64,000 bases of DNA from Dehalococcoidia bacterium (GTDB taxonomy: Bacteria; Chloroflexota; Dehalococcoidia; Dehalococcoidales; UBA3254): NCBI GenBank assembly GCA_025361145.1, contig JANYAV010000012.1, positions 14,830 through 78,829 on the forward strand, given 5' to 3'. Below, piece after piece: positions 3,677-63,832 of the stretch. The stretch's first letter is position 1, and each line of letters begins with the position of its first letter. The position numbers and the translations under genes were made by a program. A model generated the notes under the pieces. That model was not told the origin of the DNA, searched no databases, and saw only the letters and a list, made by a program, of their open reading frames with translations.

Positions 3677-4444
3677 ATGACAGGAGTTGTTTTAGTTGTA
3701 GTAATTATTTTTCTTTTATTGGTTTTGGGACCGTCCACTATCAAGATCGTACAGGAGTACGAACGCGGAGTTATTTTCCGACTGGGCCGTTTGACCGGCG
3801 CCAAAGGGCCGGGGCTTTTCCTGATCATCCCCTTCGTTGACCGCATGGTTAGGATGGACCTACGCGTAGTGACCCTGGACGTGCCTCCGCAAGACGTTAT
3901 CACTAAAGACAACGTAACGGTCAAAGTCAACGCCGTGGTCTATTTTAGAGTAGTGGATCCTCAGAGTGCCGTGGTAAAAGTGCTCGACCATATCCGTGCC
4001 ACTTCTCAGATCGCCCAAACCACTTTACGGAACGTGCTTGGCCAGGTGGAACTGGATGAACTGCTGGCCTCACGTGAGAAACTCAACCAGATGATTCAGA
4101 AGATCATCGATGAGTCTACCGAACCATGGGGCATTAAAGTCTCGACGGTTAATATCAAGGACGTCGAACTACCTGAAGCTATGAGGCGATCGATGGCCGC
4201 GCAGGCTGAAGCCGAACGCGAAAGACGTGCCAAGATCATTCATGCTGATGGTGAATATCAGGCTTCGGAAAGGCTGGCTCAAGCCGGCGCAGTGATTGCC
4301 AAAGAGCCGACTACCTTGCAGCTGCGTTACTTGCAGACGCTGACGGAAATCGCCTCGGAAAAAACTAACACAATTATTTTCCCGCTGCCTATAGAATTGC
4401 TGAAGGCGTTTTCTAAAATGGTCGAATCCTCTGACAAAAAATAG
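3677..4444 (+). CDS. SPFH/band-7 (stomatin/prohibitin-like) membrane protein
   Basis: 255 aa. N-terminal TM helix, [15 protein letters not shown] and [19 protein letters not shown] core, Ala/Glu-rich coiled coil [14 protein letters not shown]. Confidence 0.9.
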
Positions 4445-4473
4445 AACATGGTAAATTGAAATAGATTTGTGTC

Positions 4474-4509
4474 AAAACCCCCCGGCTTCTTCAGAAGCCG
4501 GGGGGTTTT
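4474..4509 (+). terminator. Rho-independent terminator after the SPFH gene
   Basis: 12-bp GC-rich stem ccccccggcttc/gaagccgggggg, 4-nt loop, TTTT tail. Confidence 0.8.
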
Positions 4510-4531
4510 ATTATAGGCTCCTTCGCCCTGT

Positions 4532-4560
4532 TTGACAGTACTGACGGCAGGTGTTAGATT
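4532..4560 (+). promoter_or_regulatory. Putative sigma-70-type promoter of tyrS (TTGACA-17 nt-TAGATT)
   Basis: Perfect -35 hexamer at 4532-4537, a 17-nt spacer and TAGATT at 4555-4560. It lies about 35 nt upstream of the ATG at 4595. Confidence 0.45.
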
Positions 4561-4594
4561 AAAAACGTTATTGTATTACAAAAGGAAGCAAAAA

Positions 4595-5863
4595 ATGAAC
4601 GTTTTTGATGAGTTTAAATGGCGCGGTCTGGTCTATGATTCTACCGAGGGGATGAGAGAAGTCTTTGAAACTGAGAAGATCATGGGCTATATTGGTTTTG
4701 ACCCTTCCGCCTCCAGCCTGCATTGCGGCTCTTTGCTGCCTATTATGGGGCTGGTGCGTCTGCAGAAATTCGGCCATATTCCCATTGCTGTGGCCGGCGG
4801 CGGCACTGGTTTGATCGGCGATCCCAGCGGCAAGACCACGGAACGCCAGATGCTCACCAAAGAGATGGTTAATTTTAACCTGGAAGGCATTAAGGCCCAA
4901 CTGGCCCGTTTTTTGGATTTCGATAGCAAAGTCAACCCGGCAATTATGGTGAATAATGCGGACTGGCTGACCACTGTCAGCCTGACCGATTTCCTGCGTG
5001 ATGTAGGCAAGCATTTTTCGGTGAATACGATGATCGCCAAAGAGACCGTTAAACGGCGGCTGGAAGCGGAAGGGATCTCTTATACCGAATTCAGTTATCT
5101 GCTTTTACAGTCCTATGATTTTTTAAAATTATATGAAAAATACCATTGCACGCTGCAAATGGGCGGCAGCGACCAGTGGGGCAACATAACTTCAGGGGTA
5201 GACCTGATACGCAAGATGCATGGCACCAAGGCCCATGCCCTGGTGTTTCCCCTATTGACGACCTCTAGCGGCAGCAAATTCGGCAAGACTGAGAGCGGCG
5301 CTGTCTGGCTCGACCCGCAACGCACATCTCCCTACCGTTTTTATCAGTTCTGGCTGAATACCGAAGATAAAGATGCTGTTAATTATTTGAAATATTTCAC
5401 TCTGCTGACCAAGCCGGAGATAGAAGAGCTGGCAGTTTCACTTGCGGCCAGCCCGGAAAAGCGGGAAGCCCAGAGAAAGCTAGCACAAGAAGTCACCCGC
5501 CTGGTACATGGGGATGAAGCCCTGAGAAAAGCCGAGCAGGCTTCGTGCATACTTTTCGGGGAGGCTGTCAGTAATCTAAGCTTACAGGACGTATTGGAAG
5601 TCTTTGCCGATGTGCCTTCGGTTAACCTGAGTAAATCACAATTCGAAGGTTCTGGTCTTTCGGTGGTGGATGTGGTGGCTTCAGCGGGGATGGCGCAGTC
5701 CAAGGGTGAAGCTAAACGGCTGATTCAAGGTGGCGGAGTCTATTTAAATAATGTCCGTATAACGGATGTAAAAAATAACGTCAGGCTGAATGAGTCCATT
5801 GAGGGGCAGGCACTGATTCTGCGTAAAGGCCAGAAGGAATACCGTCTGGTGCGTCTAGTCTGA
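4595..5863 (+). CDS. tyrS: Tyrosine--tRNA ligase
   Basis: The ATG at 4595 is preceded by AAAGGAAG. The class I HIGH-type motif reads SLHCGSL, the KMSKS-type motif reads KFGKT, and a C-terminal S4 domain is present. The TTG at 4532 in the ORF track is the -35 box. Confidence 0.93.
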   Translation: MNVFDEFKWRGLVYDSTEGMREVFETEKIMGYIGFDPSASSLHCGSLLPIMGLVRLQKFGHIPIAVAGGGTGLIGDPSGKTTERQMLTKEMVNFNLEGIKAQLARFLDFDSKVNPAIMVNNADWLTTVSLTDFLRDVGKHFSVNTMIAKETVKRRLEAEGISYTEFSYLLLQSYDFLKLYEKYHCTLQMGGSDQWGNITSGVDLIRKMHGTKAHALVFPLLTTSSGSKFGKTESGAVWLDPQRTSPYRFYQFWLNTEDKDAVNYLKYFTLLTKPEIEELAVSLAASPEKREAQRKLAQEVTRLVHGDEALRKAEQASCILFGEAVSNLSLQDVLEVFADVPSVNLSKSQFEGSGLSVVDVVASAGMAQSKGEAKRLIQGGGVYLNNVRITDVKNNVRLNESIEGQALILRKGQKEYRLVRLV

Positions 5864-6001
5864 GCTGGGATCTTTCCCTAATCGAATTTTTAATTAAAAA
5901 CAGTTGCTTTAATTTGCTGAAAATTCAGTATAATTCGGTTTGCCTTCGAAGCTGATCTACTCTATAATAAAAAGGTTATTATGCTTTCTAGGGGGATTAA
6001 C

Positions 6002-6280
6002 ATGGCTGGGTCACCCAAACTTCGAGTTACAAAATATTTCGGCGGCGCTTCCGTACAAAAAATAGAAATGGATGTGGAAGACGCAAAGGGCAATTTGGGC
6101 TATTTTTGGACGTCTGATGGCGGCAGTAATATCATAGTTTCGATTGAAGGACAGGCGATTAAGTCCTTTGATGAGCTGAAAGCTGTAGCTGCTAAGGACA
6201 AATATAAGAATATGGCCTTTATCGATGTCGGACTATTTCTTTCCAACGACGGTCATAAATCTATCTGGGATAAGAAATAG
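6002..6280 (+). CDS. Hypothetical protein (92 aa from ATG 6002; the ORF track starts at 5981)
   Basis: Open frame with an AGGGGGA Shine-Dalgarno (SD) sequence 5 nt upstream of ATG 6002. I recognise no family. Confidence 0.5.
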   Translation: MAGSPKLRVTKYFGGASVQKIEMDVEDAKGNLGYFWTSDGGSNIIVSIEGQAIKSFDELKAVAAKDKYKNMAFIDVGLFLSNDGHKSIWDKK

Positions 6281-55648: not shown

Positions 55649-56659
55649 ATGAAACTTCAAAACATAGCCCTAAAGTTAATAGCTTTCATGTTTTGCGCCT
55701 GGCTGCCCATCAACGCTGTCCTGCCCCCAGCAGATGACAGGGCAACCCCCGGTTACATCGCTGAAATTGGTGGAACTACCGCTGTTCTGAATCAGGAAAC
55801 TCTGCGCTGGGATCTACTCCAAATTGAAGCCCAGAAAGGCTGGTCTATTGTTACCGGTGGAAAAGATGTGCTGGTGGCAGTTCTGGATACCGGTATCGAT
55901 GATACCCATGCAGCCCTCGCTGGCAAGGTGGAAGGCAGAGTCAATTTCACTAACAGCCCAGCCGCAGACGTGCAAGGACACGGCACTTTTATTGCCGGTA
56001 TTATCGCCGCCGGCGCAGAGAATCCGGGCTGCCCCGGCCTGGCCTACAATGCCAAATTACTGGACGTTAAAGTCGCTGAGGACAATGGCAGCACGGATGC
56101 TAAAAAGGTAGCCCAAGGGATTATCTGGGCAGCTAACCACGGTGCTGAAGTGATTAATATAAGCATCGTAATCAATCAAGAATACCCTCTATTAGAGTAC
56201 GCGGTAGATTATGCCTGGGAAAAGGGTTGCGTAATTGTAGCCTCGGCCGGTAACAGGGCTACCACAACGCCCGTCTATCCCGCGGCCTATGCCAATGTAA
56301 TCGCGGTAGCCGCTTCCGATAAAAATGATGATCTGGCCCGCTGGTCCAATACCGGAAAGTGGGTGGATGTGGATGCCCCCGGCACCGAGATTTATTCAAC
56401 TCTTCCCGGCAATAAATATGGTACGAAATCCGGTTCTTCTTTCTCAGCCGCGCTGGTTTCCGGTGAAGCTGCCCTCTTATTTACCCGGGCCATAGATGTT
56501 GATAATGACGGCCTGCTCAACAACGAGATCAGCACCAATATTCTGAATAATTGCGATGTGATCCAGGGGCTGGAAAACACCCGCAAGCGAATCAACGTTT
56601 ATGACGCCGCCAAAGCGGCCGATATCATCCGCGAAATGCTGACGGTGACGGGGGGGTAG
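55649..56659 (+). CDS. Secreted subtilisin-like serine peptidase (S8)
   Basis: Signal peptide, then the D/H/S triad contexts VAVLDTGID, HGTFIAGIIAA and GSSFSAALVSG. Confidence 0.88.
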   Translation: MKLQNIALKLIAFMFCAWLPINAVLPPADDRATPGYIAEIGGTTAVLNQETLRWDLLQIEAQKGWSIVTGGKDVLVAVLDTGIDDTHAALAGKVEGRVNFTNSPAADVQGHGTFIAGIIAAGAENPGCPGLAYNAKLLDVKVAEDNGSTDAKKVAQGIIWAANHGAEVINISIVINQEYPLLEYAVDYAWEKGCVIVASAGNRATTTPVYPAAYANVIAVAASDKNDDLARWSNTGKWVDVDAPGTEIYSTLPGNKYGTKSGSSFSAALVSGEAALLFTRAIDVDNDGLLNNEISTNILNNCDVIQGLENTRKRINVYDAAKAADIIREMLTVTGG

Positions 56660-56681: not shown

Positions 56682-57190
56682 CACCCTGAGATGCTTCGCT
56701 ACGCTCCAGCATGACAACCTTACGCACTTCAGTATGACCGAAGGTTATTGGTGTCATTCTGGAGTCCCGATTTTATCGGGACGAAGAATCTGGTGGGGAG
56801 GGGAAAATAGGAATAGCAGTTATATGATATAATAGCCAGCAAATGCAAGAATATTATGTCAATATCATGACCAATAAATCAGGAACTTTATACACGGGAA
56901 TAACCAATAATTTGGAACGCCGTGTTTATGAACACAAGAACAAGCTGATTGAAGGTTTTACAAAACGATACAATATTACTCAACTGGTATATTTTGCTTC
57001 AGGTAATGATGTTACTGCTGCTATCACCATGGAAAAGCGGATTAAGGGAATGTTGCGAAGTAAAAAGATAGAGTTGATTAAAACAATTAACCCTCATTTC
57101 CAGGATTTAAGTGAGAGTTGGTTTGATTGCGGTAATAAAGAAGGAGTTTGACCTCACCCTGAGATCCTTCACTTCGTTCCAGGATGACAA
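56682..57190 (+). mobile_element. Putative selfish GIY-YIG cassette: a GIY-YIG gene bracketed by 36-bp direct repeats plus a hairpin
   Basis: DR1 (56682-56717) is caccctgagatgcttcgctacgctccagcatgacaa and DR2 (57155-57190) is caccctgagatccttcacttcgttccaggatgacaa, with 31 of 36 positions identical. A hairpin gtcccgat-ttt-atcgggac lies at 56764-56782. Confidence 0.4.
56843..57151 (+). CDS. GIY-YIG (URI-domain, COG2827-like) nuclease family protein
   Basis: 102 aa. YYVNIMTNKSGTLYTGITNNLERRVYEHK is the GIY-(X10)-YTG ... R ... E pattern. Confidence 0.85.
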   Translation: MQEYYVNIMTNKSGTLYTGITNNLERRVYEHKNKLIEGFTKRYNITQLVYFASGNDVTAAITMEKRIKGMLRSKKIELIKTINPHFQDLSESWFDCGNKEGV

Positions 57191-57221
57191 ATGAAATTCT
57201 TCTTTCGCCCTCTAAATACAA

Positions 57222-57250
57222 AAAGCCCGCTGGATTTTTCAGCGGGCTTT
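57222..57250. terminator. Bidirectional hairpin between the convergent GIY-YIG gene and the last fibre-operon gene
   Basis: 10-bp stem aaagcccgct/agcgggcttt, flanked by A and T runs. Confidence 0.7.
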
Positions 57251-57253
57251 GTT

Positions 57254-58834
57254 TTATTCCTTGTCTGTTGTCTGAGTAGCTTCAGCTTCCTGCAGCTGAC
57301 GTCTGCTGCGGAAAAGCGAAATAATCATTGTGGAGATTCCGGCGGCGATGCACAGCAGCCACCAGTAGTTAGTCTCCGAGACGTCAGGTATGATCCTGGG
57401 ATCTACCCACAACTCGTCGCCCAAAGGACCGGCGGTTACGGTATAGATGCCGCTGGTCCCGGGCATTAAAATCATATCCACTTCTGTGCTTTGTCCCGGA
57501 TTAAGGTGCACGGACTGGCTTTTTTGGATCTTGCCGTCTACCTTGATGACCACCACATATTCACCCGGCAGGCCGCCTTTGTTGATGACTCTGACTCGAA
57601 CGTCTGCACTTTGGCCCACCAGGATTCTTTGAGGCCTGACAGTCAGTCTCTGCAGCATAATATTGGCCGGCGGCTTGCCCGCGCCGGATTTCGCCAGTAC
57701 CACAAACAGCGAGAAGTGGTCTACCTCCGCCGCTACCTCCGGGCCTTCCGCGATAAAGCCGGCAGGGGGTGAAAGTTCTGTCCAGCCGTCCTGGTAGCTG
57801 TAGTAGAAAGCGGCCAGATCGTCTACTGTTTCAGGCAGAAGTTTATCGTTATATTTAATGATCAGGGTAGAAGGCCTATCCAGCTTCACACCGGTAATAT
57901 AGCCGTTAGTGACGCCGTTAATATCGTAATTCGGGCTGACGGGTATCCAGCCGTCCGGATAAGGGGGCACTTCAGAAACGTCAGGGTTGGTTACCCTGAT
58001 CTCCCAGGGAACGGTCTCTCCCACCTTGCTCAGGTCTACAGGGTACTGGCGGTTTTCATTAGAAAGGTGCACCTGGGTGCCCTGTAAGATATCCAGTGTA
58101 AAACTGCCGTCAGGCACAGTGGCTTTAAGACCGCCGATCACAATACCGTCAGCGGTTACCCTGGACTGGTCGCCGGCCTGAGGCATTACCAGGCTAATAA
58201 ACCGGTCTCCGCCGCCAGGCGGATTGGGAGTAGAAGGGGGCGTGGGTATGGGGTTAGGTTCAGGTTCAGGAGTTGTGGGTGGAGCACCCGTACCGCTTAA
58301 CTGGTAATTGACATCAAAAGAGATGCCGTCTCCCTGAACGATATTGTCGGTGTTAGAAGTAAAGTGGCTGCCGCCGCTAAGGGGCAAATACCAACGCCAG
58401 GTGAGTGTGACCGTGTCCCCCGGGTTTATAGCGGGGACAGTTAAGGTTTTAGGGCTGGAGGCGCTCATGGGAAACCCGGAAATAGGTCCCGGCATGGGAA
58501 AATTAGCGGCTGTCAGGCCGGAGCCGGAAACGCTGAATTGCAGATTATCGGCTAAATCGGCGGTTCCATCCTTACCGGCGGTATTGACGAATGAATCCAG
58601 CCAGATGAGCAGGGAGGCAGATTCAGTGCTGTTATTACTGACTTTTACTACCTTGGAGTCACTCTGGCCGGGGTAGATATTATTAAAGACCAGACTGGTA
58701 TTAGTTCCCCCCAGCGCATCGGTCAAACTAATGTTGATGCTGGCGGCGGAAACCGGGACTGAAGTGGGCAAGCCGAAGAGCAGGATCACTCCTGCCATCA
58801 TAATGGCTATCGTTCTTAACATCAGTGTTTTCAT
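57254..58834 (-). CDS. Membrane-anchored surface protein: signal peptide, TasA/camelysin-like domain, Pro-rich linker, unknown domain, CARDB-like Ig domain, C-terminal TM anchor
   Basis: - 526 aa with an AxA-type signal (SVPVSA/AS).
- N-terminal domain ends NIVQGDGISFDVNYQL, like the terminal strand of the neighbouring TasA-like proteins.
- Linker is PPTTPEPEPNPIPTPPSTPNPP.
- CARDB-like segment is VRVRVINKGGLPGEY...NPGQSTEV.
- C-terminal helix WWLLCIAAGISTMIISLF is followed by RSRR. Confidence 0.6.
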   Translation of the reverse strand: MKTLMLRTIAIMMAGVILLFGLPTSVPVSAASINISLTDALGGTNTSLVFNNIYPGQSDSKVVKVSNNSTESASLLIWLDSFVNTAGKDGTADLADNLQFSVSGSGLTAANFPMPGPISGFPMSASSPKTLTVPAINPGDTVTLTWRWYLPLSGGSHFTSNTDNIVQGDGISFDVNYQLSGTGAPPTTPEPEPNPIPTPPSTPNPPGGGDRFISLVMPQAGDQSRVTADGIVIGGLKATVPDGSFTLDILQGTQVHLSNENRQYPVDLSKVGETVPWEIRVTNPDVSEVPPYPDGWIPVSPNYDINGVTNGYITGVKLDRPSTLIIKYNDKLLPETVDDLAAFYYSYQDGWTELSPPAGFIAEGPEVAAEVDHFSLFVVLAKSGAGKPPANIMLQRLTVRPQRILVGQSADVRVRVINKGGLPGEYVVVIKVDGKIQKSQSVHLNPGQSTEVDMILMPGTSGIYTVTAGPLGDELWVDPRIIPDVSETNYWWLLCIAAGISTMIISLFRSRRQLQEAEATQTTDKE

Positions 58835-58877: not shown

Positions 58878-59990
58878 TTATTCTTCAGTTCCGATAACGT
58901 AAGAGACGTAACGCCAGACCTTGATATAATCCAGGTAAGCCTTGGGCAGGCTGGTAGTGGTGTTAAAGAAAAAGTTCTGATTGGTAGGAGTAATGGCATT
59001 GGAAAAAGGAAAGGTCGAGGATCCCCCCGATGTTAACAGCTGGGCGTCATTCACAAATACTTCGTAGGTATCGGCGGTGGTATTGACGTTGGCGAATTGA
59101 ATATCATACAGATTGGTGGTTGAATAAGAATAAGCCGGTGAAAAACTGTTAATGGTCCCTGAGTTGGTAGTATAGTATTTAAGGTAGCTGTCGCTGTAGA
59201 AGCTAATTCTCGGACCCGCCGTGTTGTTAGCGCCGTTGGTGTTATTGGACAGCATCATATTGTAAACCAGATTGGTTTGCATAGGTTTGGATAGAAATTC
59301 TATATTGTAAGGCTGGGTCGGAAAAGCAAAGGCATAATTTCCGCCGTAGATATTATTATTGGTATAATCCTTATTGATGTACATGCTGTGGCTATTATGC
59401 TGCCCCGTGACGCTTGAATATTGTAACTGGCCTCTGGTTCCGCTGATTTCAGTCCATCCCGTTGGCACACTCTGGTTTTGATTGGGGTTACTGGTCCAGC
59501 TGGTCTCAAAGTCCTGATAATTCAGGAATAGAGATGACACGCTGCTTTCACTACCGGTGGTAGCGGCCGAAGTATTGCCGTAATACATATATATGATGGT
59601 TGGTGTTCCGCTGGCTTCGATAATAGGGACATTCACCCAGATTATAGCGCTGGTGGAAGCAGTGTAGGATTCTATCCAGTATGTCAGAGCTGTTGTCCCG
59701 TTTGAGCTGGTAAAACGGACGTCTGAGAAATCTGTATTCATATGGTCTGTCACGAAAGGGACATTCCTTAGTTTAAGGGGATAGGCGCTGGTTATAGCTG
59801 TTGCAGGATTGGTAATGACTATTTGTTTCCGCCATTTCCAATGCACGTCAAACCAGTCCGTACGGACGGTGACCACATTACCGGATACCTTCTCGGTATC
59901 GCTGAAATAGGCCACCGATTTACCTATCAGACCGCCGACCAGCATGACCAATACTATAATACTAAAGATGATCCAGTATTTTTTATTCAT
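58878..59990 (-). CDS. DUF2341/LamG(ConA)-like secreted protein carrying a SipW-cognate-type signal peptide
   Basis: - 370 aa with signal ...GKSVAYFSDTEKVSGNVVTV.
- DUF2341-like core: WKWRKQIVITN...DFSDVRFTS..GT.LTYWIE...IWVNVP...IYMYYGN.
- Asn/Thr/Tyr-rich second jelly-roll-like half.
- 4-nt overlap with the upstream peptidase gene. Confidence 0.65.
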   Translation of the reverse strand: MNKKYWIIFSIIVLVMLVGGLIGKSVAYFSDTEKVSGNVVTVRTDWFDVHWKWRKQIVITNPATAITSAYPLKLRNVPFVTDHMNTDFSDVRFTSSNGTTALTYWIESYTASTSAIIWVNVPIIEASGTPTIIYMYYGNTSAATTGSESSVSSLFLNYQDFETSWTSNPNQNQSVPTGWTEISGTRGQLQYSSVTGQHNSHSMYINKDYTNNNIYGGNYAFAFPTQPYNIEFLSKPMQTNLVYNMMLSNNTNGANNTAGPRISFYSDSYLKYYTTNSGTINSFSPAYSYSTTNLYDIQFANVNTTADTYEVFVNDAQLLTSGGSSTFPFSNAITPTNQNFFFNTTTSLPKAYLDYIKVWRYVSYVIGTEE

Positions 59991-60514
59991 AATTTGGCCT
60001 CTTTGACCTTTTTATCGGCAGCCAGCCGGGATATTTCTGAACGCAGATTTCTGACGCAGAGGTAGATGATATACAGGGTAGGGACCACCAGACCGGCTAT
60101 CAGACCCACTTCGGTTTTTAAAAAAGAGATAAAATAACCCACATAATCAGCATGAAAGCTTACTTTGCCAACCACATTGGCCGCTGGAATAGCCATCTCA
60201 TCAGTTTGAGAGACTGCGTCTCCCCGGGTTACAAAGCTTAACTGCTTTGCCTGATTTATCTTCACGATGCGGTGGCAGACATTATACTGGCTTTCGAAAG
60301 GCGGCTTGAAAATAATAATATCGCCGACTCTCAGGTCGGCTGGATTCACTCTGTTGGCCACTACCATGGTGCCTACGTGCAGCGTAGGCGTCATGCTCCC
60401 CGAACCGACGTTGTTGATAGACAGTCCCAGGCGGGGGGAAATGTAAACCAGCGAGGAGACCAGGACCAGGAAGAGCACTATTATTAATAAAAGCGTATCC
60501 CAAAGTTTGTTCAC
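59987..60514 (-). CDS. sipW: Signal peptidase I, archaeal/ER (S26B, SipW/Sec11) type, copy 2
   Basis: 175 aa with N- and C-terminal TM helices. GSGSMTPTL (Ser) and VCHRIV (His) motifs and a RGDAVSQTD box. It lacks the Lys/GDNxxxSxDSR motifs of bacterial LepB. Confidence 0.8.
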   Translation of the reverse strand: MNKLWDTLLLIIVLFLVLVSSLVYISPRLGLSINNVGSGSMTPTLHVGTMVVANRVNPADLRVGDIIIFKPPFESQYNVCHRIVKINQAKQLSFVTRGDAVSQTDEMAIPAANVVGKVSFHADYVGYFISFLKTEVGLIAGLVVPTLYIIYLCVRNLRSEISRLAADKKVKEAKL

Positions 60515-60540: not shown

Positions 60541-61242
60541 CTACTGCTGGTGAATTGTATAATATAAGTCGATAGAAAGTCCATTGCCCATGAAGGTACC
60601 CGCCAGACTGGCCGGCACCGGGTCAATAAGGCTAAGCTGCATCGTCATCTTGATTATTCCCGTGGCGGGGTTGGTAGAATCTGTGGCGGTCAAAGGGCCA
60701 ATTTTGGTTGCTTCCCATTCGCCGTTTCCGGCTATACCGGTTGTATTGGTGTCATGGGTCAGGTCATATAAATCATAATAGCCTTTTGAACCGTGATCTG
60801 TCAGATAGATGGTGGGATCCAGATTGCCGTCTGTAGTCGTGTTTAATAAATTGACGTTTCTGCCGTAGTTTAGTTGAACCAGTTTGAATAACTTCAAGGT
60901 ATCATCCAGGCTGCCGTTAGTGCCGGTATTGCCGGTGCCGCTGATACTGAAAGCAAAATCTATCTTGGTGGCAGCTACTGTGCCTTCGTCTCTGACCCAC
61001 ATTTGGGCGATTGGTGAGGCATAGCCGGCTTTAAAATTAGCGTCTGTAAACCAGCTGGAAAAACCGTCATATTGAACGTACCCGCTTCCCGGATTGATGA
61101 CTGTCTTCAGGTCCATCCTGCCCGCCGTCACCAGGTTATCTGCGGACCGTTCACTATCTTGCAAATACGCCCAGATACCCCCGGCGGTCAGGCTGAGAAT
61201 AATTACAAAAGCTAGAGTTAATCCCACTATTTTCTTAATCAT
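60541..61242 (-). CDS. TasA/camelysin-like (peptidase M73-fold) secreted protein with SipW-cognate signal, paralogue 3
   Basis: 233 aa. MIKKIVGLTLAFVIILSLTAGGIWAYLQDSERSADNLVTAGRMDL. Terminal strand GLSIDLYYTIHQQ. Confidence 0.7.
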   Translation of the reverse strand: MIKKIVGLTLAFVIILSLTAGGIWAYLQDSERSADNLVTAGRMDLKTVINPGSGYVQYDGFSSWFTDANFKAGYASPIAQMWVRDEGTVAATKIDFAFSISGTGNTGTNGSLDDTLKLFKLVQLNYGRNVNLLNTTTDGNLDPTIYLTDHGSKGYYDLYDLTHDTNTTGIAGNGEWEATKIGPLTATDSTNPATGIIKMTMQLSLIDPVPASLAGTFMGNGLSIDLYYTIHQQ

Positions 61243-61405: not shown

Positions 61406-62131
61406 TTATTCTCCAGCTTGAACTAGAGCGAAGGACAGATCGAAGGTAATGTCATCATCCTGGGCTTTGTTATCGGGATCAATAGTAAAGTGGCTGCCGG
61501 CATTCTTCGGGAAATAATAATCTACATAGAAGATACCAACACCGCTACCGCCAGCAACATTTCCAACTAATAGGGTGTCAGTTATCCCAGGAACCATAGA
61601 ATTGGCAGTTGCGTATGCACTATCAGGAGCAATACCACCATAAGTGACTGCTTCTCCGCCAGCATAAGCGAATTTAGCTCCCGCGCTGGTGATGTAATAA
61701 TCACCGGTGTTCCAGGTTCCTGAAGTATCGGCATCAACCCAGATCGCTAATTTCAACAAGCCACCCAGTTCTCCGTCAGTTCCGCTATTGGTTCCAGGAT
61801 CTCCGGCTTTATCTTCAACCCCACCGGAAGTCCAGGTATTTTCATGATTGACCAGGTTGAGTGTTTTAAAACGAAAATCACCGTTTATATTACCGCCGTT
61901 AGTGAGGGTCCAGTTACCGGCATGCCCTTTATCACCGGGTTTCATTTTAGTGGCTGAACCGATACTGATGGGGAGTAAGGCGTTAGCACCACCGACTGTG
62001 AGGCTAAGTTTCCCGGCCGTGATGGTGTTGCCGGTTGAGGTAACAACATCATTGAAGTAGGCCCAGGTGCCTGTGCCGAGCATCGCGATGACCGCGATCA
62101 GGGCCACTGTGAGTCCAATAATCTTTTTCAT
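61406..62131 (-). CDS. TasA/camelysin-like secreted protein with SipW-cognate signal, paralogue 2 (candidate major subunit)
   Basis: 241 aa. GTGTWAYFNDVVTSTGNTITAGKLSL compares with B. subtilis TasA GGGTWAAFNDIKSKDATFASGTLDL. It also has a KMKPGDKG strand and the terminal strand AQDDDITFDLSFALVQ. Confidence 0.75.
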   Translation of the reverse strand: MKKIIGLTVALIAVIAMLGTGTWAYFNDVVTSTGNTITAGKLSLTVGGANALLPISIGSATKMKPGDKGHAGNWTLTNGGNINGDFRFKTLNLVNHENTWTSGGVEDKAGDPGTNSGTDGELGGLLKLAIWVDADTSGTWNTGDYYITSAGAKFAYAGGEAVTYGGIAPDSAYATANSMVPGITDTLLVGNVAGGSGVGIFYVDYYFPKNAGSHFTIDPDNKAQDDDITFDLSFALVQAGE

Positions 62132-62214: not shown

Positions 62215-62982
62215 TTAGTCCTGATGCAGAGAGTACAGGAAATCTGTGTATAATTTCAAGCCCTGCACCTTGTTATTAACGGTATGGGTGGTGTCATCGG
62301 GCAGGTAATAAGTGAAGTGCATGTAGATGGTGGAGTTGGCCGTCAAATAAGTAGTTCCGCCCGCTGAACCGTTGGGAATCGGTACGCTAGTCCAGGTAGT
62401 TTCACCGGTGGTATTGGGCCGGCTGGCATAGGTGGGTGAAGAAGCAGCACCGATATAACCCGTGGTGGTAGTGACCCAGGGAGCGAAGCGCCCGGTTAAA
62501 CTGGGAGAAGCGCCCAGATCGGTAGTGGTCCCGCCCGGATTTAACAGGATGCTGTAAGCGGGAGGAGTTGCCGAAGCGGTGGTGCTTAACCAGATCGCTA
62601 CTTTGGAGGCAGTTCCCAGGTCTCCTACGGTTACTACTGTGGTCCCGTCAGCAGCATGTAATTTACCGGTGGGAAAGCCCGCTGCATCCTGGCCGGCGTT
62701 AGTAATTTTAATATCCAGCTTCCCGGAGATGTTGGTGGCCCCATCATTTTTCAAGGAAATGGATTGATGGGCTGCTCCCGACCCGTTGGCGGCTGTGGGT
62801 ACGAAGGCTGAGTCAGTCAGGAAAGTATAGGGTGTGGTGCCGCCGATAGTCAGATCCAGCGTTCCGGCTGTCACATAGTTGTCTGCTGATTTTTCGGTAT
62901 CGGAGAAGTAAGCGAAGGATCCGACACCAGCTACGGCGATAATGATGATGGCCGCGATGGCTAAACCTAATATTTTCTTCAT
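62215..62982 (-). CDS. TasA/camelysin-like secreted protein with SipW-cognate signal, paralogue 1
   Basis: 255 aa. MKKILGLAIAAIIIIAVAGVGSFAYFSDTEKSADNYVTAGTLDLTIGG. Thr/Gly/Ser-rich. Terminal strand VQGLKLYTDFLYSLHQD. Confidence 0.72.
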   Translation of the reverse strand: MKKILGLAIAAIIIIAVAGVGSFAYFSDTEKSADNYVTAGTLDLTIGGTTPYTFLTDSAFVPTAANGSGAAHQSISLKNDGATNISGKLDIKITNAGQDAAGFPTGKLHAADGTTVVTVGDLGTASKVAIWLSTTASATPPAYSILLNPGGTTTDLGASPSLTGRFAPWVTTTTGYIGAASSPTYASRPNTTGETTWTSVPIPNGSAGGTTYLTANSTIYMHFTYYLPDDTTHTVNNKVQGLKLYTDFLYSLHQD

Positions 62983-63052: not shown

Positions 63053-63832
63053 CTATGAAAGATCGGCTAAGATTTTTCTCATCTCGTTACGGATGTTATC
63101 ATTAACCTGTTTATTGCTAAAAACCTGGGCAGGCACTTCTTTTGCCGCTTTTGCGGCCTTGACTTCAGCAACCACAGGTTTAATCACTTCAGGCTGGGCT
63201 GCCTTTTTGACCGCTGGCGTAACCGGTTCAGGACTAACCGGTTTGGACTGGCGCTTGTTCATCACGCCACTGTCAGCCCCCACGGCTACAGTTTGCATAA
63301 CCGGGCTAATACCAGCGGCGCTTTTCTTTTTATCATCTTTAAAGGCTTCTTTAAGAATATCTTTGATCAGGAACCCGACCAGGATCAGAGTAGGAATGAT
63401 CACGATTAAAAACCAGCCTTTCTTGGAGTTGGTCAGGTTCGTAATCCAGCCGATGGCCGGAACCTTGAAAAGATAGGACCCCTGAACGGATGAGATTGCG
63501 GTGGTGCCTGAATCAGCACTTTTATTGGCGTCACCTTTGGTGGTGATCTGTCCGTTTTCTATGCTAACGGCACGGTGAGTGACTATTTTGCCTTGATTGT
63601 CGAAGGTAATAATCTCCCCGGGTTGAATCTCATGCACGGGACCGGTGATGATGATATCTCCGGCGCTGATGCCGGGTTTCATACTGTCACTTCGTACGAT
63701 ATACATACCATAACCGGGCACCAGTTTTACAAAAGCTACGCCCAGTATAGCCAGGCCGATAATTACCGTTATAGTCCAGGACACTATCTGGCCGATCTTC
63801 TTGGTTCTTATTCGTTTAGAGGCTGCGAACAT
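63053..63832 (-). CDS. sipW: Signal peptidase I, archaeal/ER (S26B, SipW/Sec11) type, copy 1, with a Lys/Ala/Pro/Val-rich C-terminal extension
   Basis: 259 aa. N-terminal TM helix, SDSMKPGI (Ser), VTHRAV (His), a KGDANKSADS box, and a second TM helix. The tail is about 90 aa (PVSPEPVTPAVKKAAQPEVIKPVVAEVKAAKAAKE). Confidence 0.78.
   Translation of the reverse strand: MFAASKRIRTKKIGQIVSWTITVIIGLAILGVAFVKLVPGYGMYIVRSDSMKPGISAGDIIITGPVHEIQPGEIITFDNQGKIVTHRAVSIENGQITTKGDANKSADSGTTAISSVQGSYLFKVPAIGWITNLTNSKKGWFLIVIIPTLILVGFLIKDILKEAFKDDKKKSAAGISPVMQTVAVGADSGVMNKRQSKPVSPEPVTPAVKKAAQPEVIKPVVAEVKAAKAAKEVPAQVFSNKQVNDNIRNEMRKILADLS

Follow-up and report, generated by a model that had tools for sequence, protein, structure and literature searches.

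In the 64,000-nucleotide (nt) stretch of DNA from a Dehalococcoidia bacterium that we analyzed (contig JANYAV010000012.1, positions 14,830 to 78,829; here referred to as the window), a gene at 57254..58834 on the minus strand encodes a 526-amino-acid (aa) membrane-anchored protein with an acceptor-only TasA-like head, as assessed from the open reading frame (ORF) and its homologues. On balance, and with moderate confidence, we favor the interpretation that this protein, here referred to as the target, is the membrane-anchored terminator or base of the donor-strand TasA-type fiber encoded by its own operon.

The target is built from a series of clearly separable parts, all encoded on the minus strand. 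Residues 1 to 30 (58745..58834) form a signal peptide that, judged from the sequence, ends in a classic AxA site with VSA before and AS after the cleavage point and has no SipW-type motif; it is thus of the conventional AxA type and not of the AYFSD type, as stated in the original prediction, which had been made from the DNA letters alone. The target is also not matched by TIGR04088, the NCBIfam model for SipW-type signals. The TasA-like jelly-roll head follows at residues 31 to 183 (58286..58744) and is connected by a Pro/Thr-rich linker at residues 184 to 208 (58211..58285), with the sequence APPTTPEPEPNPIPTPPSTPNPPGG, 12 of 25 residues Pro, and a predicted local distance difference test (pLDDT) score of <50 in AlphaFold2 (AF2), to a conserved stalk module, beta-rich and unassigned to any family, at residues 209 to 388 (57671..58210). 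Next come a CARDB Ig-like domain at residues 389 to 479 (57398..57670), in which PF07705 matches residues 398 to 468 (E-value 6.1e-7; 30 bits versus a cut-off of 22.7) and which AF2 models with a pLDDT of 80 to 89, a transmembrane helix at residues 490 to 508 (57311..57367; hydrophobic stretch YWWLLCIAAGISTMIISLF) that is part of an AF2 helix spanning residues 491 to 525, and a short cytoplasmic tail, identified from the sequence, that starts with RSRR at residues 509 to 526 (57257..57310). The Pro-rich linker, a long region resisting assignment, the CARDB-like domain, and the single C-terminal helix followed by RSRR had all been pointed out earlier, and all were recovered here. These data support that the target is a type I surface protein anchored at its C terminus. 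We found no sortase, exosortase, or archaeosortase motif (LPXTG, PEP, PGF, etc.) ahead of the transmembrane helix of the target, and a C-terminal sorting signal was rejected for the family, as 91 family C termini have no conserved motif ahead of this helix; the LPXTG label given by JGI to one relative is owed only to the transmembrane helix and the basic tail. Several ORFs of 60 to 110 aa lie antisense to the target gene (e.g., 57191-57469, plus strand) and look like chance ORFs within a coding region.

The head domain is homologous to TasA, though it lies outside the curated PF12389 (Peptidase_M73) model. We refer to it as TasA-like based on three independent lines of evidence, i.e., direct comparison, profiles, and structure. 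Using BLASTP, target residues 75 to 179 were found to be 30% identical to the 241-aa TasA-like protein encoded in the same operon (E-value 2e-7). When an alignment of 27 heads (A2) was compared using hhalign with one made up of five TasA-like operon proteins and Bacillus subtilis TasA (A3; fragments of the B. subtilis sequence used are consistent with the PDB profile alignment), the two were matched with a probability of 97.2% and an E-value of 4e-11 over 146 columns. In a search of 5.8 billion proteins, the head profile ran continuously from the head family into PF12389 proteins (E-values 1e-16 to 1e-6); PF12389 directly matched 11 of the 27 related heads (best E-value 3.4e-6), and a hidden Markov model (HMM) of the head matched the SipW-type subunits of six loci (E-values 1e-17 to 1e-5). 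A head-only AF2 model built on A2 had a pLDDT of 85.9 and a predicted template modeling (TM) score of 0.79. The three best PDB matches of this model in Foldseek were monomeric TasA (5of2/5of1; TM-scores 0.63-0.66, probability 1.0, E-values 2e-4 to 1e-3), followed by unrelated folds with TM-scores of about 0.3. The original prediction had named a fold unlike that of TasA as the finding that would overturn it, and the top structural matches were all TasA; its estimate of about 190 aa for this domain was too large, as the head comprises 153 aa. The head had been modeled poorly in a full-length AF2 model based on an eight-sequence alignment (pLDDT 45-70; Foldseek against PDB gave only generic multi-Ig matches), a problem that was solved by the head-only model on the 27-sequence alignment. 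Matches of the head to NCBIfam choice_anch_D and Pfam ASH (E-values 0.02-0.14) were set aside as generic beta-sandwich noise.

In the B. subtilis TasA fiber, residues 28 to 38 are the donor strand and residues 39 to 47 a connector, and the strand at residues 48 to 61 complements the monomer itself and is displaced upon polymerization (PMC9674648). The same study made a TasA allele lacking residues 28 to 38 as a donor strand mutant (PMC9674648). Three registers agree that the mature target begins after this strand. First, hhalign pairs target A31-S-I-N-I-S-L with T38-A-G-K-L-S-L of the 241-aa neighbor, whose mature N terminus is Y25, after a SipW site between WA and YF; nothing in the target corresponds to the 13 neighbor residues YFNDVVTSTGNTI. 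Second, alignments of the head HMM to the subunits of the six loci began at subunit residue 35-42 or later every time. Third, head profile position 14 falls on TasA residue 49 in the PDB profile alignment, which places the first mature residue of the family at approximately TasA residue 40. Overall, the mature N terminus of the target aligns with neighbor residue 38-39 and TasA residues about 40-47. From these alignments, we infer that the head is a natural version of TasA lacking the donor strand, in which the connector and the self-complementing strand are kept. The head model was closer to the self-complemented TasA monomer (TM-score 0.66) than to the fiber form 8aur (TM-score 0.53). Because the mature protein starts after the donor strand, the head could accept a strand but could not give one, and the target is predicted to be unable to form homopolymeric fibers. 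The change in signal type represents the same fact as the missing strand, since the donor strand begins within the SipW-type motif.

The target gene closes a co-directional gene cluster on the minus strand that contains the parts of a TasA-type system. In order of transcription, this cluster starts with a SipW-like S26 peptidase of 259 aa (63053..63832; TIGR02228, E-value 1e-21), followed by three TasA-like subunits of 255 aa (62215..62982; AYFSD signal; TIGR04088, E-value 4.6e-9), 241 aa (61406..62131; AYFND signal; TIGR04088, E-value 1.7e-10), and 233 aa (60541..61242; AYLQD signal). The assignment of these three neighbors as TasA-like in the original prediction holds: all have SipW-type signals, and they score 28.6, 33.8, and 19.6 bits, respectively, with PF12389, of which the last is below the Pfam cut-off of 22.5 bits. 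Downstream of them are genes for a second, 175-aa SipW-like signal peptidase (59987..60514; TIGR02228, E-value 1e-28; SipW model, E-value 4e-23, which is below the equivalog cut-off) and a 370-aa DUF2341 protein (58878..59990; PF10102, E-value 4e-19) that is a candidate tip or nucleator. TIGR04088 scored above its cut-off for the DUF2341 protein (22.1 bits versus a cut-off of 19) and two of the three TasA-like neighbors, the third being below it. The genes for the 175-aa peptidase and the DUF2341 protein overlap by 4 nt, and 43 nt separate the DUF2341 stop from the target start. A strong bidirectional intrinsic terminator at 57222..57250 (11-13 bp stem, 7 of the pairs being GC; T-runs on both strands) lies 4 nt past the target stop and marks the target as the last gene of the operon. 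This terminator is common to the target gene and a convergent GIY-YIG gene (56843-57151, plus strand). Of the two SipW-like S26 peptidases, the 259-aa one is extended at its C terminus by ~100 aa, among which Ala, Lys, Pro, and Val are frequent.

The same arrangement was found outside the window. We examined synteny for the loci with enough flanking sequence, and in all seven head-bearing loci, the head gene was downstream of genes for TasA-like proteins, a peptidase, and a tip protein; in six of these seven loci, as in the window, it was the last gene of the cluster. The P0004 contig encodes a 256-aa protein, three M73 (PF12389) proteins, a DUF2341 protein (870 aa), and a target homologue (537 aa). 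The order is two M73 proteins, a 174-aa protein that is SipW-like by sequence, a DUF2341 protein, and a 542-aa homologue in L001; and three M73 proteins, a 173-aa protein SipW-like by sequence, a DUF2341 protein, and a homologue split into 247 and 505 aa in L007, a Dehalococcoidia metagenome-assembled genome (MAG). The break in the latter homologue (L007 10001-12301) is inside the middle module and points to either a frameshift or a misassembly of the MAG. L008 encodes an M73 protein, an S26 peptidase, a DUF2341 protein (761 aa), and a head-only protein (177 aa); L010 two M73 proteins, an S26 peptidase, a DUF2341-LamG protein (1650 aa), an M73-Big_9 protein, a head with a transmembrane helix (281 aa), and further M73 proteins; and L011, from Dehalococcoides mccartyi, two TasA-like proteins, a Kelch protein (1038 aa), and a head with a transmembrane helix (255 aa). 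L006 has a partial version of this arrangement.

Based on a HMMER scan with residues 25 to 395, the target belongs to an undescribed yet widespread family, with 250 clusters at 50% identity for E-values up to 1e-3 and 103 clusters for E-values up to 1e-10; a narrower head alignment run against a genome collection found only two loci, both from Dehalococcoidales. Most members have about 450-550 aa and a common plan with a classic signal peptide, the head, often the same middle module, and a C-terminal transmembrane helix with an Arg/Lys tail. The head typically begins with a sequence of the type "PVDLELGGEGATSWNIsNIKPGDSG". Among 155 complete heads, 91 are followed by a transmembrane anchor, and the 12 residues after this anchor have on average 4.4 Lys or Arg, in agreement with the positive-inside rule; a SipW-type motif was found ahead of only 3 of the 155 heads. 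The target had been described as chimeric; that it is a one-off gene fusion was rejected based on the recurrence of the same architecture in dozens of 50%-identity clusters. One further locus, L005 from a Dehalococcoidaceae MAG (3741-6071), contains four SipW-type TasA-like genes and a SipW gene followed by a gene for a 219-aa donor-less TasA-like protein, which has a lipobox (VVSGC) and no SipW-type motif and is weakly matched by the head HMM (E-value 3.6e-4); the next gene encodes a 540-aa DUF5305 protein (E-value 6e-23). From its sequence, this lipobox would be an alternative, N-terminal lipid anchor.

Since the head is of the acceptor-only type, it points to a terminator or base and not to a nucleator. 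The opposite role, that of a membrane-bound nucleator or assembly platform whose head takes up the donor strand of the first subunit before the fiber grows outward from the cell, was an option named in the original prediction and fits the same structural facts, i.e., the TasA-like head, the anchor, and the position in the operon. We consider it unlikely: an acceptor-only domain supplies no strand, and a TasA subunit gives up its own strand only once it has been complemented (PMC9674648), so that the chain has to start with a donor. Moreover, the operon already encodes a donor-only protein, i.e., the 370-aa DUF2341 protein. This protein has a SipW-type signal followed by the donor-like strand YFSDTEKVSGNVVTV, which runs directly into the DUF2341 domain, and the head HMM gives no match to a TasA core in it. 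The strand of this tip protein is represented by YFSDTEKVSGNVVT, and the mature N termini of the three subunits of the operon by YFSDTEKSADNYVT, YFNDVVTSTGNTIT, and YLQDSERSADNLVT. The window operon has four donors (the tip protein and three subunits) and four acceptors (three subunits and the target head). The equivalent proteins of L001, L007, L008, L010, and L011 have the same kind of N terminus, and the large proteins encoded just upstream of head genes begin with a signal peptide and an xSDxExSxxN donor-like strand that leads directly into a lectin-like or propeller domain, as exemplified by the LamG head in L010 and the Kelch head in D. mccartyi (L011); none of them is matched by the head HMM. 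By analogy, the DUF2341 protein more likely than the target acts as a strand-donating tip or nucleator comparable to TapA or TafC. Accordingly, of the earlier proposal that the target is an anchored strand exchange subunit, the TasA-fold head, the anchor, and the linkage to fiber operons (in the window and seven loci) stand, while a nucleating or donating role is unlikely for a head without a donor strand.

The stalk module at residues 209 to 388, for which about 200 aa had originally been estimated and which comprises about 180 aa, is modeled confidently as beta-rich by AF2 (pLDDT about 76-90). It had no match in Pfam, and with a 16-sequence profile (A5), it gave only chance-level HTRA1 matches among PDB sequences (E-values >1). 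The module was present in 98 proteins of the set retrieved at that stage, has the conserved motifs PxGW..VS..YD and HFS.F.V.AK, and occurs without the TasA-like head inside P0127 (708 aa), P0088 (1227 aa), P0099 (1358 aa), and P0095 (1677 aa). We conclude that it is an undescribed mobile envelope domain. Neither the head domain nor the stalk module has a Pfam family model at present.

Another explanation is that the target is an independent surface protein (e.g., an adhesin or a component of the envelope) in which a TasA-like jelly roll serves only for binding and which has no part in the fiber. In its favor, the body consisting of stalk, CARDB, and transmembrane helix is also found under other heads in unrelated contexts, as in P0007, where the head is Big_5 and the gene lies beside a cohesin gene, and a copy with a degraded head persists in a locus without fiber genes. 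In this locus from a close relative (L003, 650-2505; P0003, 431 aa), no TasA, SipW, or DUF2341 gene lies between hisD and the homologue, where only a DUF5305 fragment is left; the head is internally deleted, and the stalk, CARDB, and transmembrane parts are 55-60% identical. Judged from the sequence, L003 looks like a case of coupled decay of the head and the fiber genes, and decay of the head where the fiber genes were lost argues against independence. So do the position of the head-bearing form downstream of TasA, SipW, and tip genes in all seven loci and the loss of precisely the donor strand, which argues for a role in strand exchange. Together, these observations make an independent function improbable.

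We therefore return to the interpretation that the target is a terminator, for which we propose the following mechanism by analogy with TasA and TapA of B. subtilis (PMC9674648, PMC10151520). The tip protein, with its DUF2341- or LamG-like head and donor strand, would complement the first subunit. Each complemented subunit would then free its own N-terminal strand into the next one, as does B. subtilis TasA, and the fiber would grow at its cell-proximal end, where SipW would free new donor strands. The target head would take the last free donor strand, probably displacing its own self-complementing strand at residues about 44-57, and having no strand to pass on, it would stop growth. With the tether of linker, three beta-rich or Ig-like modules, and transmembrane helix, termination would also anchor the fiber: the stalk and the helix would fix it to the cytoplasmic membrane, across the Dehalococcoidia envelope. 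The ratio of the target protein to the subunits may set the length of the fiber.

Several points weigh against this interpretation. The target itself reaches no Pfam threshold for TasA (no PF12389 match), and when the profile was compared with PDB sequences, the two best matches were TasA, yet they were weak (E-value 0.3). The proposed polarity is argued from TasA of B. subtilis and would carry over by analogy. The literature searched reports no fiber for these organisms; in that literature, we also found no paper tying TasA systems to a membrane-anchored terminator, DUF2341, or Dehalococcoidia. Finally, no anchor was seen for 64 of the 155 complete heads, though many of these are contig fragments, and some members have no transmembrane helix, the 177-aa protein of L008 being a head alone. 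Thus, anchoring is not universal, and the head-only members suggest that the core role may lie in capping, to which anchoring is frequently added.

The separability of capping and anchoring in head-only members without a transmembrane helix, such as that of L008, also fits a role as a transient chaperone or length regulator, in which the head keeps subunits from polymerizing too early by holding free donor strands at the membrane, or caps fibers that are later released, with no permanent base. TapA is described as a strand-complementing chaperone (PMC10151520). A stalk with a transmembrane anchor is the majority architecture, and a long stalk composed of a linker and three domains fits a structural spacer better than a holdase. 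Furthermore, donor-strand complexes are typically very stable. For these reasons, we regard a transient role as quite unlikely and retain the terminator as the preferred interpretation.

The remainder of the window is ordinary chromosome, with genes for pyruvate kinase, UvrD, CTP synthase, a ClpB-type ATPase, a PstS-like phosphate-binding protein, PhoU, and a two-component sensor kinase/response regulator pair. Just outside the operon, a gene at 55649-56659 on the plus strand encodes a subtilisin-like S8 peptidase; a hydrophobic segment at its N terminus is probably a signal peptide, and a link to fiber processing is possible.

How TasA-type fibers end and attach is unsettled, as TapA, once considered the anchor, is now viewed as the donor that starts the fiber, and the only terminator proposed so far is the archaeal TafF, which is a model. 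The target is a concrete and testable candidate for this missing part. Our interpretation predicts that Dehalococcoidia have a TasA-like pilus that is anchored and whose adhesin tip can be exchanged (DUF2341/LamG; Kelch in D. mccartyi). Such a pilus would be relevant for attachment and biofilm growth in dechlorinating consortia, and this group includes the bioremediation organism D. mccartyi. In a broader and more tentative proposal, which we consider possible but somewhat doubtful, donor-less membrane-tethered TasA paralogues would constitute a widespread unrecognized family, mainly in Dehalococcoidia/Chloroflexota, of dedicated terminators and anchors of TasA pili. Together with a donor-only lectin-like tip and SipW, they would represent a complete tip-first, base-anchored assembly line that has its logic and some of its parts (S26 peptidase and DUF5305) in common with the archaeal Tafi. 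This broader proposal, if true, would explain how cells without a peptidoglycan wall end and attach their TasA-like fibers.

The target head shares the jelly-roll fold of B. subtilis TasA (PF12389; 5OF1/5OF2/8AUR) and is detectably homologous to it in sequence, and it is likewise encoded beside SipW-type peptidases and true TasA-like subunits. It differs in having neither a SipW-type signal nor an equivalent of donor strand 28-38 and in being fused to a linker, stalk, CARDB domain, and C-terminal transmembrane helix; unlike TasA, it is predicted to be unable to propagate a chain. Chaperone-usher P pili and sortase pili have a specialized last subunit (PapH and the basal pilins, respectively) that ends growth and attaches the fiber to the cell and whose abundance sets the length. 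PapH donates and cannot accept a strand, which is the reverse of the polarity proposed for the target; the folds and machineries are unrelated, and sortase pili are covalent.

TapA of B. subtilis is, like the target, an accessory protein of a TasA operon. TapA was historically regarded as the anchoring and assembly factor and acts by strand complementation (PMC9674648, PMC10151520). It is a nucleator that contributes a TasA-like N-terminal strand, whereas the target has no such strand and has a TasA core instead; the target is thus probably not the functional TapA analogue that it was originally suggested to be, a role for which the DUF2341 protein is the likelier candidate. In contrast, the suggestion that its architecture is unrelated to that of TapA was correct: a SipW-type signal and a macroglobulin-like sandwich are features of TapA, the target has a TasA-fold and not a TapA-fold head, and it is not matched by TIGR04087 (YqxM_for_SipW).

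A precedent for the target is found in the Tat-fimbriae (Tafi) of haloarchaea, in which TafF (Haloarcula hispanica HAH_0238; Natrinema TafF1/F2) is described as having, like the target, a pilin-like beta-sandwich head and membrane helices. The TafF cluster also resembles that of the target in encoding an S26-type peptidase (TafD), donor-strand pilins, a LamG-like tip (TafC), and a DUF5305 protein (TafG) (PMC11821415, PMC12337348), and TafG-like DUF5305 proteins are also carried by Dehalococcoidia clusters. The laminin-G-like tip TafC provides the first strand (PMC11821415, PMC12337348), and TafF was modeled, using AlphaFold only, to accept the strand of TafA such that it "terminates assembly by anchoring" the fiber (PMC11821415). 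The target has the TafF-like architecture of a pilin-like head with a membrane segment and is encoded in a pilin/signal peptidase cluster. In contrast to the target, TafF is archaeal, Tat-linked, and has three C-terminal transmembrane helices without a stalk or CARDB domain, Natrinema TafF1/F2 have one transmembrane helix before a jelly-roll-like domain, and the Tafi pilins are described as a group separate from those of TasA and the archaeal bundling pilus. By analogy, TafF would be the closest functional precedent for the target, and the terminator role itself was proposed earlier for TafF based on modeling.

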